From assembly GCF_018977255.1 (NCBI RefSeq), contig NW_024704769.1, positions 3,968,001 through 4,032,000 of the forward strand: a stretch of 64,000 nucleotides of DNA, in the 5' to 3' direction. The translations under genes and the position numbers were made by a program. Within the stretch, counting starts at the first letter, position 1. Each line of letters starts with the position of its first letter. This stretch comes from Callorhinchus milii (Eukaryota). A model generated the notes under the pieces. The model worked only from the letters and a program-made list of their open reading frames with translations, was not told the origin of the DNA and did not search any database. Shown here piece by piece: positions 15,101 to 57,085 of the stretch.

Positions 15101-17924
15101 CTGCCTGTGTCTTCTTTGTCAGGTACTTTGCCTTAAATCCACCAGATAACAGAGAAAATAAGAGAGAGCAATGTAACAAAATATCCCACCGGCCCACAGT
15201 TAATCTGCGAGTCTGAATCATGTTCAGATGCCCTCTTCCCCTCATCCTAGACACAGTCACCTCCATCTATGATCGACAGCAAGTGAACTATTCAATACAA
15301 AGTTCTGAACATAAATAGTCTTGCCCCACAAAATACACAGTCACTACACTTTACAGTATATTCTGTGAAGTCCTACTCATTTCTTTCAAGCGCTCTGGGA
15401 CGCTACCATGCATGAGCGGCGCTATATAAATGCAAGTTGTTGTTTCTATCACTGCCCCCGCCAAGATCGAACTTTAAAGTCAGATCAAAACTTGACCACC
15501 GCTGAAGGTAATTGCCCTGTGCTCTGTGCAACCGTTCACTCATCTCACCCAGATGACTAGCGAGTCAGCCTGAGCCAAACTGGGCCTAATTACCTTGTTG
15601 AAGGAGTCTTTGTTCTGGGTGTTCCTGCTCAGAAGGTTCCCAGCTAAGATCACACGGGATATTTCCGCAGCACTGCTCTGCTCTCCCTCGTCTCCCAATT
15701 GACCAGTCACCATGTCAATCAGCAGCTGCATGCCGAGGAGACTATCTGCGTTTCTTCCGCCCAGGCCGAGACCAGAGGCTAACAGAACATACCTTCAAAC
15801 AAACAGTCATGTGGAATAAATTCTCTCAAAAACTATTCAACTAACCTTTCAATGGCATAAAGCACCAAACATTACTTGCTCTGCATTCCTGATCATCTAA
15901 GTGTAAAATGCAGAGAGTGACAAAGTAAGAGACATATAATGGGTAATATAATGGGAATGTCTACTCCTGATCTTGTGAGACAGCACAGTCCATTCATTCA
16001 TCAACATCTGCAACTGTGGCTGTGCTTTCAATGGCAAGCTGGTTAAAAATGTACACTATGGTGGCCCCAAGCCTTAGCTCTCGCTAGTCTATGCTGAATC
16101 AGGTAAGCAGAATGAGTCCATCCAGGGAGAGAATGCACATCCCAATACAATACATTTCCATGTGTATATTTCCATGTGTAGTATGGTGTTTCAAGCATGG
16201 TGATGGGTTTCTGCATGTATCAAACACTCTGCTGACCCCCAAAAAGTGTCTGGAAGCTATGTCAGACTACATCAAGTGACTGATACCCTGGCTGATGACT
16301 GATACCCCGCCTCTCACCCATCAGGATCGGGTTCAGTCTCTCACCTGTCAGTAGCAGGACCTGCCATTTGCTGCTGTGGTGGGAGGTCAGCGGTACAGAA
16401 ATCTTCCACGAGGAATTTACCGTCTCCCTGTTCCGTTCCCAACAATCCCAGAATTACTCCTGGCAAAGGAATGCACAGGCACATTAAATCCAACTCCAGA
16501 AACAACCTCACTCAATTTGCCTCAGGCAAATCAAATTGTCGAACCAACCTGTGACAAATTTCTGAACATCAATAGCTCCCTCCAATTTGATTCGCTGCAA
16601 TTCATCCTCGAGAATAAGCTCGTCCAACTGATCGGTGAATTTTGTTCGCAGCGGCTGAGGCAACAGGTTGTGCTGAAAGGACAAAGAAACAATGTTAAAT
16701 CTTTTTTTGTTGAGCGCATTCTTCAGTTGAAGTTCCAATTATGTCTAGAGTCCCTTAGACTCCTACCTCTTCACTGATCTCCCGCAGGATGGAGGGTTTC
16801 AGCTCCATGTGCTTGAAGAGCGTCCCGATCACACAGCACCTCTCCCCGAGCTGAAGTTCACAGAGCTTCTTCACTGGCACGTCAGCACCTGGAAGACAAC
16901 AGCCAGTGCGTGCTGAGCCCCATTCCAACAGCACATCTGCTCGGGAGCATAGGAACAGGAGGAGGCCATTCAGCCCCTCAAGCCCGTTCCTCCATTCTAT
17001 TTGATCATGGCTGAACTATACCTCAGCTCTAATTTAAATGTTTATTTTAAATTATTTTAAATATAAATGTTTACCTCAAAATGAAAGGCCTGCGGGGAAA
17101 TATGTGGTGTAGGCGACTTATACTACAGGACATGTATATGGTAGGACAATAATTTGCAACAAATTTCCCCCCAGTGTTGTCGGCAGAGGACAGCAATGGT
17201 TTCAGGATGCAACATGCGGCAACAGGCCAAGTGCACAGCCAAGCGGCAGGAAAGCATCACTACAGATGGTTCGCTGGGCATGCAGGCTTTAAGGGGGCTG
17301 TTTATTCCCCCTTCTGCACAGTCAACCAAAAGCGGTATTGACAGAGTAGAGAATGAGGGCACAGTGCCATCCTCTGAAAATGCAGCACTCCGTAACATGG
17401 CATTGGAGTGTCGAGTACTGTCTAAGATTAGAAGCTCAAATCCTGAACCCACACCATCTGACTCAAAGTCGAGAGTGCTACCAATTTAGCCAGGCAACGG
17501 TACCGTTGGAATAACAGACTCTATACGTGCACTTCTTTCCGCAGAGCGACTCATAGCACCTTGGGACATCCTCCTGACGTGAAACGCGCTATTTAAATGT
17601 AAATCTGTACACTAAAATTTGCATTGTATTTACATTGACAAACTTGAACTTTGGTTTGTTCACACAAACACACGCCTACATGCGCGCGCCCACCGAGGAC
17701 TTACCCCATTTGTTTTTGACTCTCTCGGCCAGAAAACTTTGCATCTGGATAAGACGAACGGCGTAGATGTGTGCATACTGCCGGTTAAAGTTGCGCTCTC
17801 CTAGCGTGAAGCGTTCCGAGCAGTTCTTGTAAGAGGAAGTGGGCACTCGGTCAAACGTGGGAGCATCTTCCATGGGGGCTGAGAGCAGAGTTTGAGTTTT
17901 CTGGGCAGCTTTGTCAGAGAACAT
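12138..17924 (-). CDS. POLD2: DNA polymerase delta subunit 2 (p50), complete CDS in 10 coding exons
   Basis: Exons 17705-17924 ([18 protein letters not shown]), 16767-16888, 16549-16672 ([14 protein letters not shown]), 16345-16459, 15594-15792, 15051-15131, 14356-14513 ([18 protein letters not shown]), 13997-14124, 13676-13777 (CPHIYFCGN), 12138-12298. Probable non-coding exon 1 ends at a donor near 19326. Confidence 0.96.
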
Positions 17925-19229: not shown

Positions 19230-19900
19230 CTCAGGAGCCGCTGTGTTTCATTGCCAGCCTGTGGCGGCGGCGGCGGCGGCCTCGGCCTCTCCGCTCCGTG
19301 TCTCCCCCCCTCAGGGCCGCTGTACCTCAGGGCCGCCGCCGCCGCCACAGACGCCGCTGCGAGTCCTCCCCCTCTCGCGCTGCTCAGCCCGAGATTCCCG
19401 CCAACCGTCGCCCTCGCGACCCGGTCCAAACTGCGCATGCTCAGTGCTGCCGAGCAGGCGGAGGGCACGCCGCGCATGCTCAGTGCTGCCGAGCAGCAGG
19501 AGGGCACACCGCGCATGCTCAGTGCTGCCGAGCAGGAGGGCACGCCGCGCATGCTCAGTGCTGCCGAGCAGCAGGAGGGCACGCCGCGCATGCTCAGTGC
19601 TGCCGAGCAGGCGGCGGGCACACCGCGCATGCTCAGTGCTGCCGAGCAGGAGGAGGGCACACCGCGCATGCTCAGTGCTGGAGAGCAGGACAAACGTGCA
19701 CGTGGCAATGGTCAACCCCGAGCCTCACAAAGCACACAGTCACTACTGTGGGTCAGCCTGGCTCGGGCGGTCACCCTCTCGAGCCCCCACGTCAGGTCCT
19801 GAAGGGCGGGCAGTCAGGCTCGGGCGGCCTCCGTGTACGGTCACACCGGTGTTCCGCAGAACTACCAATTCCAAAATGATTACAGCACTACTTTCCGGGT
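19230..19900 (-). promoter_or_regulatory. POLD2 CpG-island promoter and first non-coding exon
   Basis: CpG-rich. Donor CTGAG|gtacag at 19326. Seven GCGCATGCTCAGT units. ZNF143/ACTACA-like ACTACCAATTCCAAAATG at 19861. Confidence 0.7.
19431..19690. repeat. 36/39-bp minisatellite, 7 copies, each with an NRF1-like motif
   Basis: GCGCATGCTCAGTGCTG starts at 19433, 19472, 19511, 19547, 19586, 19625 and 19664. Confidence 0.95.
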
Positions 19901-37720: not shown

Positions 37721-46545
<8,825 letters not shown>

Positions 46546-46584
46546 CTTGGTTCTGGCGGCGGGAGGGAGGGAGGAGGCCAGGCG

Positions 46585-46895
46585 CTGTGTCACGTGGCGG
46601 GGGTGCGATCACGTGGGGTGGGATGGGATCACGTGGCGGGGTGTCGCCCTTTCGTCACCTCGGCGGAGATGGCCAGTCGCCACGTGGGTGGTCACGTGTG
46701 TGTGTGTGTGTGGGGGGGGGTCACGTGGCGGGGGTGTGCGTGTCTCTGATCACGTGGCGGGGGTGTGTGTCTCTGGTCACGTGGCGGGGGTGTGCGTGTC
46801 TCTGGTCACGTGGCGGGGGTGTGCGTGTCTCTGGTCACGTGGCGGGGTGGCGCGCCTCACGGAGCCGAGGGTCACGTGGTGACCGGAAGTTGACG
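46585..46895. promoter_or_regulatory. Bidirectional CpG-island promoter of ATP6V1B2 and TTI2 with 11 CACGTG (CLEAR-like) boxes and an ETS site
   Basis: CACGTG at 46591, 46610, 46630, 46681, 46693, 46722, 46751, 46778, 46807, 46836 and 46873, mostly as (G/A)TCACGTGG. CCGGAAGT at about 46883. Confidence 0.8.
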
Positions 46896-47089
46896 CCTGA
46901 GCGAGTGAAGGGAGTGAAGAGACGGAGGAAGAGAGAGGGAATGAATGAAGAGGTGAAGAGGAGAGAGAGAGTGAGTGAGAGTGAGAGGAGGAATTCCCTG
47001 TCTCAGTGCTGTGACATTCAGTGACTCAGTGAATAAACGGCGGCTCTGTTTAGCAGAGTCCAGAGGTAGAAGGAAGACACAGAGACAAA

Positions 47090-47550
47090 CCCTCCCCCCA
47101 ACACCCCCCACACCCTCAACACCCCCACAACACCCCCTCCTCCCCCCCACACCCCCTCCACAACACCCCCTCCCCCCCACACCCCCTCTCCCCCCACACC
47201 CTCAACACCCCCTCCTCCCCCCACCCACACCCCCTCCCCCCCCCACCCCCAACACCCCCCTCCCCCCACAACACCCCCTCCCACACACCCCCCACACACA
47301 CCCCCTCCCACTCCCCCCACACCACCCCCCCACACACACCCCCTCCCACTCCCCCCACACACACCCCCCACACACACCCCCTCCCACTCCCCCCCTCCCC
47401 CCCACACACCCCCTCCTCCACACCCCCCCCACTCCCACACACACCCCCACCCCAACACCCCCCCCCAACACCCCCCTCCCCCCACCCACACCCCCCCCTC
47501 ACCGCCCCCCCAAACACACACACACACACACACCCCCCCCCCCCCCCCCG
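47090..47550. repeat. Low-complexity C/A tract with G-quadruplex potential on the minus strand, 5' of the TTI2 ATG
   Basis: About 460 bp composed almost only of C, A and T with many C4-C8 runs. Confidence 0.9.
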
Positions 47551-47565
47551 AGCAAAGCAGCTTCA

Positions 47566-50500
47566 ATGGAGAGCCCGGATGACGCCCTGCGCCGACTCGG
47601 TGCGACAGCCACACCCGCCCGCGTGCAGCCGGACCGGCCCCGTCGGCCCTCCCCGCCCTGCGGGCAATCCAGCGGGCGCTGCAGAGCGAGAGGCCGGAGC
47701 GCGAGAGGCGGGAGGCGGTGGAGGCCGCCCGGTGCCTGCTGGAGACGGCCGAGGGGCGCTGGCTGTTCGCCGCCGGCTGCCCCGGCGAGCGAGAGGATGT
47801 GGTGCGGACCTACAGGGACGTGACCGTGTGCCTGACGCGGCGCTCGGCTCCGCCCGCAGGAGACCTCGGCGGCGGTGTCGGGGGTGAGACACCGCTGAGC
47901 GCCGCGGCCGAGAGCCCGAGCGCCGTGGCTCAGGTCCTCCAGCGGCTGGTCAGGAAGCTGCACGAGGAGAAGGGTCAGGACTCCCCCGCGGGTGCCATTC
48001 TGGACGCTATTTTGCCCCCACTGCTGCTGTTCTGCGCCGCCCACCAGCAGAACGCGCCCTGGAGCAGCCTCGCCTCGCGCCGGGCTGCCGGGGAGCTGCT
48101 GGCCGCATTGCTGCAGGCAACGGGCTGCGCGACCGCCACCGAACTGCTGAGCGGGACAGCGGAGGCCGGGCACGGAGCGCTGGGGGCCGTCCTGAGAGAA
48201 ATGCAACCGCAAGCCGACAAGTGAGTCCACGGCGGCGGCGGCGACGACGACGACGACACCACCACCACATTCACGCAGCGCACTTTCACATCGGGAGCAC
48301 ATCCCCAGGGCAACAGATCCATCAGGATTTGGGCGCTCCGTCCACAACTGACCGCGCGCGATTGGCTGACCCGTTCCGCCCACGAGACGCGCAGTCACTA
48401 CACTTCACAGTGTATCCCGCGCAGCGCTCGGAGACGTCTCGGAGGACGTCCCATCGGGACGCTATTATCCAACGCAAGGATTGTCACGAAAGGGTTTGCA
48501 CCCGAAAGGAGGAGAGGGTTGGCGCCCGGAGGGGGGGGTGGAGGGCGGGGAGGGGGGTGGAGGGCGGGGAGGGGGGGGGAGGGCGGGGAGGGGGTGGAGG
48601 GCGGGGAGGGCGGGGAGGGCGGGGAGGGGGTGGAGGGGGTGGCGTAAGCGCAAGTTGTTGTTGAGAATGTAACGGACGTGTGTGTCATTCTCCCCAGAGA
48701 GACCGGGAAGCTGAACCCTGCCTCAGGCCGTGTGCTGTGCTGGGTGTTAGAGCGAGCGAGGAGTCCTGCACTCTCTCTGCATCTGGACGCCGCTCTGCCC
48801 CCGGCCTTACTCCTCTCTGACGACTACAGGACAAACAATAAGGTTCTGGGCGTGAGGTGTCTCCAGCACATTATTGTGAATGTGGTAGGTACCAGGTGTG
48901 GGGGGTGGGGGGTGGGGGGGGACGGGACGATGGAGAGAGAAGGAATCTATCCCCGAGGGTGAAATCCACAGCCACTACACTTTACAGCATTCTTGAAGCG
49001 CTTTGACACATCTCAACGATGCGATAAGGCGCTATATCAAAGGCAGAGATTATTATTATTATTATTATTGCTGTATAGACCAAGGTCCATCCGGTTCACC
49101 TTCTACCTCGTGAGCGCTCGCCTCGCAAGCGAGAGGACCCGGGTTCGATTCCCGGGCAGGACCGAAACCTTAGGCAAGTTTCCTTACTCCACACACACAC
49201 ACACTCTGTTTACCAGCGGTCAGTAGGAACCCGGTTGTTAGCCAATTAGCGGTTAGAGAGAGAAAGGAGGGAATCAGTCTGTCTGGGGACGGGGAGTGGA
49301 GCTGCGAGGTTTGCGAGGCGCTGTTTACCTGAGAGTGTGTTGTTCTGTTCAGCCTCCCGCGGAACTCCTGCAATATAACCGAGCCCAGGTCCTGTACCAC
49401 GCTCTCTACAACCACCTGTACACACACGAGGTCTCGCTCGTACAGGTGAGGCCCGGCCAGGAGCCTGCGACACGGGAACCCGCTCACTCACCTCTTACCT
49501 ACACGTCGCACTCCCTCGCTCTGCGGCTGGTCCAGCCCTAAATCTTGTAGGGTCGGCCTCGCTCCTCTGTGACCTGCCGACTCCATACCCAACCTGTCCG
49601 CTCGGCAGGCCCCGGTCTGCTCCAGGTCCCCCTGCCCTGCCCACCCCACCATCGGGGTCGCCTTGCTCCCTCCCTTGCCTCCTTCAAGGTCCGGCTCAAG
49701 ACCCTCGGTCACCCTCCTGGTCCCAAACCCCAGCTCGGGTCCAAATCCTGTCCAGCGCCTCCTCCCGACGTGAACGGCGCCGTGAAAATGTAGCCTTGTG
49801 TGTTGTTATCTACCTCTCTCTGTCTCTGTCTGTGTGTCAGGCCGTACTGCCCTGTCTTCTCGCCCTCCTCCCTGTGCTGGAGGGACCGCCCGTTCCCGGG
49901 AAGCCACGCGCGCCCGGCCCCAGCGACGACACGCTCCGGCTGATCCTCACCCACATGGAGGCCGAAGACAAGATCCCACTGCGGAGAGTTTACGCCTCCC
50001 ACCTGCCCACCTTCACTGCCAGGTCAGCCACGACAGATAACGACGACGCGTGTATTTATTACAGGAGCCGTGAGGGTAGTGTCCCAGGTCTGCCAGAGGG
50101 CAAGTCAGGTCAGTGTGTGTAAAATGCAAGTATTAGTATTATTATTATATTATAACCTCTGTCTCCTCTGCTCTGTGCCCTGGCTACAGGCTGGGGATCA
50201 CTGTCCTCCGTCACTGGAAGAGGCTGCAGCGAGTTATACTGGGCTACCTGGAGGTGGATGATGGTAGTTCGGATGAGGCGGCCAGGCTTGGGGTTCTCCG
50301 CACGCTGGAGACCGTGATCCAGCAAGCCTGGCCCAGGTCAGTCAGCACAGACGCTGGGCTGGGGGCTGGTTGGGGAGGGAGGGAAGGGGAAACATAGGAA
50401 TTGCTGGACGAAAAAAAAGACCAAGGTCCGTCCAGTTGGCCTTCTACCATTCCGGAAGTTTCGCCCACAAAATATACAGTCACTACACTTTACAGTGTAT

Positions 50501-51170
50501 CCCGCGAAGCGCTTTGTGGTGTCTCAACGACGTGATAAGGCGCTGGATCAAATGCGAGGATTATTATTATTATTACAAATCGTATCAAAGAACCTTACAG
50601 CACAGAATAATGGAGATGTTGACAGCAGTTAATTCCGGACGGATTAGTCTACAACAGTGAGAAGCTTTGGGAACCTTAGGTCCAACGTTACCTGGGAGGC
50701 GGGAAAATGGGGAAAGGGATGAGGGAAAGAGGGGGAGCGAGAGGGAAGGAGAGGAGAGAAGATTGACGGAGGGTGTTTGGTGACAGGGCGAGGCTGTGGC
50801 TGGAGCCGTTGCTCAGGGCGTTGCTGAGGCTGGTGCTGGACGTGTGCGAGGGGGGGAGCGAGGCCGCGGGGAGCAGAGAGCAGCTACTACAGAGTGCTAC
50901 TCGCTGTGTGTGTCTCCTTCATCACTGCAGCAGCGATACCGTGCCGGTAAGTGCTGCCCCAGTCTGTCTGTCTCTCTCTCTCCATTCCTCCCTCCTTCTC
51001 CTCCAGCTGCTGACGGTGTGTGTGTGTGTGTGTGTGTGTGTTGCCTTCAGCTGGTGTTGACGAGGTTGGTGTCGAGCTGTGACAGCCGAGCAGTCAGGAC
51101 TTGGCTACAGGGAACACAACAAGAGATCAACAGCAGCAGCTCAGGACGGCAGCAACTGGCTCCAAGGTGA
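47566..51170 (+). CDS. TTI2: TELO2-interacting protein 2 (TTT complex), 7 coding exons; apparent 1-nt frameshift near 47598
   Basis: Exons 47566-48220, 48698-48884 (LLLSDDYRTNNKVLGVRCLQHII), 49353-49445 (LLQYNRAQVLYHAL), 49841-50022 (LILTHME), 50190-50336 (QQAWPR), 50787-50946, 51051-51170. Tail-to-tail with MAK16 as in human. Confidence 0.88.
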
Positions 51171-56188: not shown

Positions 56189-57085
56189 GGCGGCTCCTCT
56201 CTGTGTCCCTCTCTGTCACTCTCTGTGTCCCTCTCTGTGTCCCTCTCTGTCACTCTCTGTGTCCCTCTCTGTCACTCTCTGTGTCACTCTCTCTGTCCCT
56301 CTCTCACTGCCCCACGTGCTGCCCGGAAGTGACGAGCCAACCTCTCGCGAGGGGCTGTGCCGGCAGTACCGCGGTCTGTCCGCCGGGCGGCGCTGCGCGC
56401 AACCGCCCTGCGGTACCGCGGCGCCTCCACCGGGCGGCGCTGCAAAACCCACCCCCTGGCGGATCAGGGTGCGATGCCGCGGCGCCTCCACAGGGCGGCG
56501 CTGCGAACTCACCACCGCGCCACACGGCGCTGTGTTCAACCCGCAGACACACGCGGCGCTGCACCCGGTGCCGCAGTACCGCAGTCCGCCCACAGGGCGG
56601 CGCTACCGTCACGTATAATCGATGAATGTCAATTCAATACATTGAATAAATCAGAGGGATAATTAATGGTGTAAAAGGGCAAAGAAAAGTGCAATTGGAG
56701 ACCNNNNNNNNNNNNNNNNNNNNNNNNNNNNNNNNNNNNNNNNNNNNNNNNNNNNNNNNNNNNNNNNNNNNNNNNNNNNNNNNNNNNNNNNNNNNNNNNN
56801 NNNNNNNNNNNNNNNNNNNNNNNNNNNNNNNNNNNNNNNNNNNNNNNNNNNNNNNNNNNNNNNNNNNNNNNNNNNNNNNNNNNNNNNNNNNNNNNNNNNN
56901 NNNNNNNNNNNNNNNNNNNNNNNNNNNNNNNNNNNNNNNNNNNNNNNNNNNNNNNNNNNNNNNNNNNNNNNNNNNNNNNNNNNNNNNNNNNNNNNNNNNN
57001 NNNNNNNNNNNNNNNNNNNNNNNNNNNNNNNNNNNNNNNNNNNNNNNNNNNNNNNNNNNNNNNNNNNNNNNNNNNNNNNNNNNNN
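55359..57085. other. Region containing three assembly gaps (55359-55584, 55609-56006, 56704-57085)
   Basis: N runs. The first hides the start of MAK16 exon 2. Confidence 0.98.
56190..56615 (-). promoter_or_regulatory. MAK16 CpG-island promoter and GA-rich repetitive 5' UTR
   Basis: CCGGAAGT (ETS) at about 56323, TCTCGCGA at 56343, repeated CC(A/G)C(A/C)GGGCGGCGCT. CTCTGTGTCC-type repeats at 56197-56307 lie directly 5' of the ATG. Confidence 0.6.

Follow-up and report, generated by a model that had tools for sequence, protein, structure and literature searches.

Several described systems resemble the locus treated here, and they are summarised below. CLEAR promoters are one of them. The element is defined, second-hand, in PMC8862610 as GTCACGTGAC, of which one or more copies lie about 200 bp from the start. 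CLEAR sites are occupied by USF2 and HDAC1 in fed cells, and on starvation TFEB competes for them; most USF2 peaks contain GTCACGTG (PMC11436898). MITF-family sites are set apart from MYC sites by a 5' T and/or a 3' A on CACGTG, with TCACGTGA as the best MITF binder and double sites giving more-than-additive peaks (PMC7427332). USF favours a 5' GT flank more than MYC-MAX does, and binding is stronger where sites form homotypic clusters (PMC8431614). MYC has also been reported at lysosomal promoters (PMC6689058). The insect counterpart, control of V-ATPase genes by dCLEAR and Mitf, likewise uses several E-boxes per gene, up to eight in Vha16-1 (PMC10452791, PMC4836007).

Repeat-borne sites are known from TYMS, whose TSER is a 28-bp VNTR with USF1 sites. 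It is located in the 5' UTR region, mostly with 2-3 copies, and an effect on transcription has been reported for it (PMC7712088). Divergent CpG-island promoters form a further group. Their opposite-strand starts lie about 1 kb or less apart, they carry GABP, YY1, NRF1 and Sp1 motifs, with GABP and YY1 enriched, and some of the pairs may be two overlapping promoters (PMC2077898).

The locus compared with these systems lies in a stretch of 64,000 nt from Callorhinchus milii, which is called the window throughout. This window contains 26 CACGTG boxes, 11 of which fall within 46591-46878, between ATP6V1B2 (V-ATPase B2) and TTI2. As in CLEAR promoters, CACGTG with a GT or T flank occurs in several copies near the start of a V-ATPase gene; the shark array differs in its eleven one-direction copies, apparently the product of tandem duplication, and in that its binding is predicted only (PMC8862610, PMC11436898). 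Its flanks are half-CLEAR, with a 3' G instead of A, except for box 1 of one allele. The insect sites differ more strongly, with the core TCATGTGA and an often intronic, positionally conserved placement (PMC10452791, PMC4836007). With TSER the array shares a tandem unit that carries a factor site, a unit length of about 28 bases, a USF-type E-box, a position at a housekeeping 5' end, a site number that seems to vary and a single base that alters site quality (PMC7712088). The shark unit contains the full CACGTG, unlike that of TSER, and its effect on transcription is putative. By analogy, the array most likely acts in the manner of promoters with several CLEAR elements and of the 28-bp USF repeat of TYMS (PMC7712088). 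The preferred reading, to which a probability of roughly 0.5 is given, is a multi-copy USF/MiT-TFE cluster that serves ATP6V1B2 within a divergent CpG-island promoter and that arose from a repeat growth general in this genome. The array consists of the following features.

46591, 46610, 46630, 46681, 46693, 46722, 46751, 46778, 46807, 46836 and 46873: CACGTG boxes 1 to 11
46589-46698, plus strand: older, diverged and polymorphic cluster with boxes 1-5 and one decayed unit at 46655
46599-46641, plus strand: candidate relaxed G-quadruplex with four G-runs (regular-expression scan)
46719-46847, plus strand: young minisatellite with a 27-29 bp unit (period 29), 4.5 copies, 94%, boxes 6-10 (Tandem Repeats Finder)
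46871-46895, plus strand: box 11, followed after a 4-base gap by an ETS (GABP-type) site and then a CRE half-site (motif scan)

The eleven-box cluster is real, and independent contigs confirm it in part. A recount agrees with the initial annotation, which had placed eleven boxes, ten of them TCACGTG, between the two genes; the exception is the box at 46681. Dinucleotide shuffling of 46549-46900 (n=5000) gave a mean of 0.66 boxes and a maximum of 4. Outside the clean repeat, 46549-46718 contains five boxes, against 0.22 expected from the same kind of shuffle. The region is CpG-island-like, with an o/e of 0.98 and a GC content of 0.65. Consecutive boxes are spaced by 19, 20, 51, 12, 29, 29, 27, 29, 29 and 37 bases. 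The regular spacing of 27-29 bp claimed for six boxes from 46693 to 46836 is therefore present (29, 29, 27, 29, 29), but the clean tandem unit holds only five of them, and the sixth (46693) is located inside a degenerate unit. Each box of the young repeat is followed by a G-rich run resembling a GC/GT box. A second decayed unit, at 46857, lies directly upstream of box 11. The array had also been placed between the ATP6V1B2 ATG and the TTI2 5' end; the TTI2 ATG, at 47566, is 688 bases beyond the last box.

Four of 23 listed sequencing runs were compared with the assembly over 46345-48300, with repeats skipped, including 47271-47560. Runs X1 and X2 are DNA-like, as their contigs cross exon-intron borders. 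Runs X5 and X6 are considered RNA-like by guess and by behaviour, since their contigs stop matching at donors, with further letters that fall outside the compared stretch, from which splicing was deduced. The X2 contig (46433-46746, depth 3.2) covers boxes 1-6 and has three substitutions, all outside the cores; four of its eight inserted letters are unplaced, the GT run being their most likely position. Five boxes are present in the X1 contig (46345-46687, depth 9.1) against four in the same part of the assembly. After re-alignment, the extra box is a single 15-base indel, and a base change at 46597 turns box 1 into an exact CLEAR palindrome. This one-box indel in the older cluster was found in one of the two DNA-like runs, with one contig behind each of the extra-box and assembly-like alleles. 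On these contigs, box number differs between the sequenced samples, in keeping with the repeat-length variation that had been suspected. Boxes 7-11 are covered by none of the four runs (46747-46916 is uncovered), and only the first young unit is spanned. The young part contains exact repeats of more than 31 bases, which would break short-read contigs, and repeats nearby were skipped, so the gap is uninformative either way.

The copies point to a common origin. All nine asymmetric TCACGTGG boxes face the same direction (p 0.004 if independent), the eleven boxes have common flanks in the alignment, and box 1 agrees with the tandem core at 17 of 17 bases. Both decayed units are in register with the array. 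On this alignment, the gap holds about 13 units of an old array, within which a 29-bp unit has expanded more recently. Given the shared orientation and flanks, the array was likely built through repeated local duplication of a single founder unit, and the proposed repeat amplification of the boxes is upheld. CACGTG is intact in 11 of the 13 recognisable units although spacer length varies between 12 and 51 bases, and the decay forms CATGTG and CACATG were not seen in the array. Among nine old units, which were chosen by half of the core, cores are kept at 23/27 positions and flanks at 30/45 (p 0.10), and the boxes show no helical phasing; these two measures thus give no significant evidence of selection on the copies.

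Repeat growth extends beyond the array. Apart from ATP6V1B2 and TTI2, the window includes POLD2, a hexokinase-family gene, MAK16, a RING gene and a carboxypeptidase-family gene; the neighbour names GCK, RNF122, AEBP1 and MYL7 are presumed from synteny. The following features are relevant here.

45299-46344: minisatellite of 28-30 bp with about 35 copies, in intron 1 of ATP6V1B2
47094-47549: C-rich low-complexity repeat that separates the array from the TTI2 ATG, a candidate for intron 1, a long UTR or TTI2's own promoter
Near 17924, minus strand: first coding exon of POLD2
19433-19690: minisatellite with a 39-bp unit, 6.7 copies and seven NRF1-like words, in the CpG island upstream of POLD2
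56362-56609: GC-rich 38-bp unit in four diverged copies, upstream of MAK16 (ATG near 56189, minus strand)

The words in the POLD2 repeat are assigned to NRF1 by its consensus. Counting as minisatellites all loci with a period of at least 10, at least 3 copies and at least 80 bases, 9 of 11 are no more than 1.5 kb away from one of four housekeeping 5' ends, zones that make up 16% of the window (binomial about 2e-6, counted post hoc in one window and with a deduced POLD2 5' end). Promoter motif arrays are common here. Since motif-bearing repeats occur at adjacent housekeeping promoters too, the array by itself is no sign of a special device, and its portrayal as a specially selected one is not supported. 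Were the array non-functional, it would be one more case of the repeat growth of this genome multiplying promoter motifs.

The two flanking genes and their transcripts are represented by the following features.

37724-46545, minus strand: coding span of ATP6V1B2, with 14 exon matches and the full protein (tblastn with sawshark B2)
46395-46561, minus strand: exon 1 of ATP6V1B2, with the ATG at 46545, a donor after 46395 and at least 16 bases of 5' UTR (X6 contig)
46540-46548, plus strand: YY1-like motif overlapping the ATP6V1B2 start codon (motif scan, 2 matches in the window)
46917-47091, listed on the plus strand, transcript strand undefined: candidate TTI2 leader region (X5 contig, depth 2.5)
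47566-48220, plus strand: first coding exon of TTI2, lacking one G after 47641 in the assembly, with a donor after 48220
About 48690-48884, 49353-49448, 49830-50023, 50176-50337 and, weakly, 50875-50949, plus strand: later coding exons of TTI2 (tblastn, 8 homologues)

Exon 1 of ATP6V1B2 is a 100% match to XP_007905618.2, the brain isoform of the V-ATPase B subunit of Callorhinchus milii. The protein encoded in the window scores 771 bits against mammalian B2 and 720 against pig kidney B. Two trees, with 24 and 14 rows selected out of 120 listed, both place it next to sawshark B2 as its sister, at moderate support (91/87 and 87/89), and the alternative grouping with shark B1 is rejected at the borderline (p-AU 0.0485). 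Bit scores and trees together disfavour an identity as kidney-type B1. ATP6V1B2 appears to be expressed and spliced, as the RNA-like X6 contig stops matching at the donor; the end of this contig at 46561 need not be the true start. The YY1-like motif was assigned by the YY1 consensus.

For TTI2, the assembled frame from the ATG at 47566 meets a stop at codon 86. An extra G after 47641 is present in both DNA-like runs (X1 and X2); TTI2 is therefore intact and the assembly wrong at this point. With the G added, the exon is open for 219 codons, compared with 208-225 in four homologues. The same G, found in two of two DNA-like runs, rules out a pseudogene. The gene was identified through PDB matches at E 1e-9 and exon-by-exon tblastn. 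A profile search returned 26 relatives, none of them from Callorhinchus milii by sequence, with a best identity of 37% bar one short match at 45%. Searches with the first coding exon found no longer TTI2 relatives and no Pfam match, and the protein searches found no full-length TTI2 of Callorhinchus milii. TTI2 appears to be expressed and spliced; in both X5 and X6, agreement of the contigs with the assembly breaks off at the donor after 48220.

The 5' end of TTI2 is less sharply defined. Within the candidate leader, the best donor-like site is at 46971, upstream ATGs are found at 46941 and 46945, and an AATAAA at 47032; the X5 leader contig runs unspliced through the donor-like site. The X5 TTI2 contig starts at 47642 with a depth of 23.7, against 2.5 for the contig upstream. 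Neither of the two RNA-like runs contains RNA that joins the array end to the TTI2 coding exon. The ETS site on the TTI2 side of the array is tentatively regarded as the likely start of TTI2 transcription. Human TTI2 presumably has a non-coding first exon. Its coding exons number eight (PMC6830114).

The ATGs of ATP6V1B2 (46545, minus) and TTI2 (47566, plus) are 1021 bases apart. As ATP6V1B2 RNA reaches 46561, the opposite-strand starts are separated by at most about 1005 bases, and the distance drops below the 1 kb that limits divergent promoters once the TTI2 5' UTR exceeds 5 bases. This bears out the divergent, head-to-head geometry. GABP-type and YY1-like motifs lie on either side of the array, in agreement with divergent CpG-island promoters. 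The human ATP6V1B2 gene is at a separate position. Human TTI2 has been placed at 8p12 (PMC6830114). Chicken chromosome 22 has DUSP26, MAK16, LZTS1, ATP6V1B2, RNF122, TTI2 and SLC18A1 in one 100-kb window (PMC6062655; also PMC6678660). The linkage of ATP6V1B2 and TTI2 is thus old, and the pair was not newly brought together from distant places. The comparison of gene arrangement proposed at the outset is answered in part, as both genes share this chicken window in a gene list without order or orientation. The interval 46545-47566 is without SLC18A1, though chicken keeps this gene within the 100 kb.

The flanks of the boxes indicate which factors may bind them. Though the initial annotation speaks of CLEAR/E-boxes, no exact CLEAR site is present among the 11 boxes of the assembly, and box 1 is exact only in the X1 allele; five boxes have one mismatch to GTCACGTGAC, and nine have at most two. 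The best MITF 8-mer, TCACGTGA, is absent from all 11 boxes of the assembly, and the USF2 motif GTCACGTG is present in seven. A 5' T and/or 3' A, as in MiT/TFE-type sites, was found in 10 of 11. Only the box at 46681 lacks the 5' T or GT flank, as expected for MYC-MAX, while each of the others has a T on one half-site; MYC is accordingly disfavoured as the main binder. The suggestion of a TFEB or USF/MYC element stands for USF or MiT/TFE, by the 10 T flanks and the seven copies of GTCACGTG, and falls for MYC. The array is predicted from its flanks to bind USF1/2 and the TFEB family. Seven of the boxes are no more than 200 bases from 46561, where the RNA-like ATP6V1B2 contig has its 5' end, which stands in for the true start. 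The window has only two instances of an E-box followed by 4 bases, an ETS site and a CRE half-site, one at 46873-46895 and one in the MAK16 promoter at 56313-56334. The ETS-CRE 11-mer (PMC3464117) is exact at MAK16, and the site at the TTI2 end is one base longer. MAK16 and TTI2, which share this composite element, are neighbours arranged tail to tail.

Several other readings of the array have been weighed. The array could belong to ATP6V1B2 only, in which case TTI2 would be driven by a promoter of its own at 47.1-48.5 kb, within the C-rich repeat and CpG island, and the plus-strand RNA at 46.9-47.1 kb would be upstream antisense. CpG-rich bins at 47501-48500, the AATAAA and the two upstream ATGs in the leader candidate, and the start and greater depth of the X5 TTI2 contig, which has no joint to the contig upstream, favour this arrangement. 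It is nevertheless considered unlikely, because the composite at 46873-46895 resembles a promoter-proximal element and because a non-coding first exon would be consistent with the donor-like site at 46971 together with the acceptor AGs at 47552-47560; the contigs, moreover, cannot show starts, and 47271-47560 was skipped. A larger role for TTI2 was proposed initially, in the form of a selected TFEB amplifier. The polymorphic CLEAR array would then be bidirectional and the TFEB family would co-induce the V-ATPase subunit and TTI2, so that low mTORC1 would yield more mTOR assembly factor, with a loop gain that varies by box number and flank. The divergent geometry, the symmetric filling of the gap by boxes if TTI2 starts near 46890-46917, and the variation in box number and CLEAR quality between samples agree with such a device. 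MTOR protein is lower in patient cells with a TTI2 mutation, which makes the feedback logic possible (PMC6830114). The proposal is very doubtful all the same. TTI2 RNA is not linked to the array end in the two RNA-like runs, unrelated promoters next door carry motif arrays too, TTI2 is one of three TTT subunits, and its end shares the E-box and ETS composite with the promoter of MAK16, a growth-type gene. Energy depletion, furthermore, is reported to disassemble TTT-RUVBL, so that control at the protein level would run the opposite way (PMC11789495). Co-induction of this kind was not described in any paper found by literature searches combining the name TTI2 (not its alias C8orf41) with TFEB or ATP6V1B2, or bidirectional promoters with CLEAR. 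Co-induction of TTI2 by TFEB is possible but unsupported. Loops from TFEB to mTORC1 through RagD and the V-ATPase are already known. If TTI2 followed TFEB, lysosomal stress would gain a transcriptional link to PIKK assembly, none having been found in the searches.

The number of boxes allows further explanations. Near-neutral repeat slippage could account for the extra copies, with one or two proximal boxes at work and the output saturated. This would agree with the growth of repeats near each of the four housekeeping 5' ends, with a whole box being present or absent between alleles, and with the insignificant excess of core conservation and lack of phasing. The retention of CACGTG in most units despite irregular spacers, without CATGTG or CACATG decay, makes it quite improbable, as does the more-than-additive effect of double MITF sites (PMC7427332). 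Over-assembly of the young 29-bp part, with a lower true count, is hardly credible. Boxes 7-11 are spanned by no contig of the four runs and a one-base assembly error lies 770 bases away, but the units differ in length (27 vs 29 bases) and in the A or G before the box, the exact repeats would break short-read contigs in any case, and six boxes are confirmed regardless.

Under the preferred reading, a USF/MiT-TFE cluster serving ATP6V1B2, the eleven same-direction E-boxes that occupy the CpG-island gap would likely set the expression of this gene. TTI2 would be an ordinary divergent housekeeping partner, likely starting at the far-end ETS site. By analogy with mammalian work, USF2 would hold the sites in fed cells and would be displaced by TFEB, TFE3 or MITF on starvation. 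Paired sites may bind more than additively. Because of this exchange and the more-than-additive pairs seen in mammals, the pump gene could combine strong basal occupancy with inducibility on starvation. A functional array would constitute a natural allelic series on whether the number and flank quality of CLEAR/USF sites tune lysosomal output. It would also be a natural test of bidirectional action by a cluster of this kind.

Some gene models and contigs of the flanking genes deviate from the exons given above. The RefSeq isoform X2 of ATP6V1B2 has a shorter exon at 38974-39083 with an out-of-frame end and loses the C-terminal domain; the genome has the full exon. In one fish gene model, V-ATPase B2 is fused with a dual-specificity phosphatase domain, probably through merged predictions of neighbouring genes. 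On the TTI2 side, an X6 contig (depth 3.4) is missing 24 in-frame bases of the first coding exon at 47879-47902, which represents either an allele or an error.
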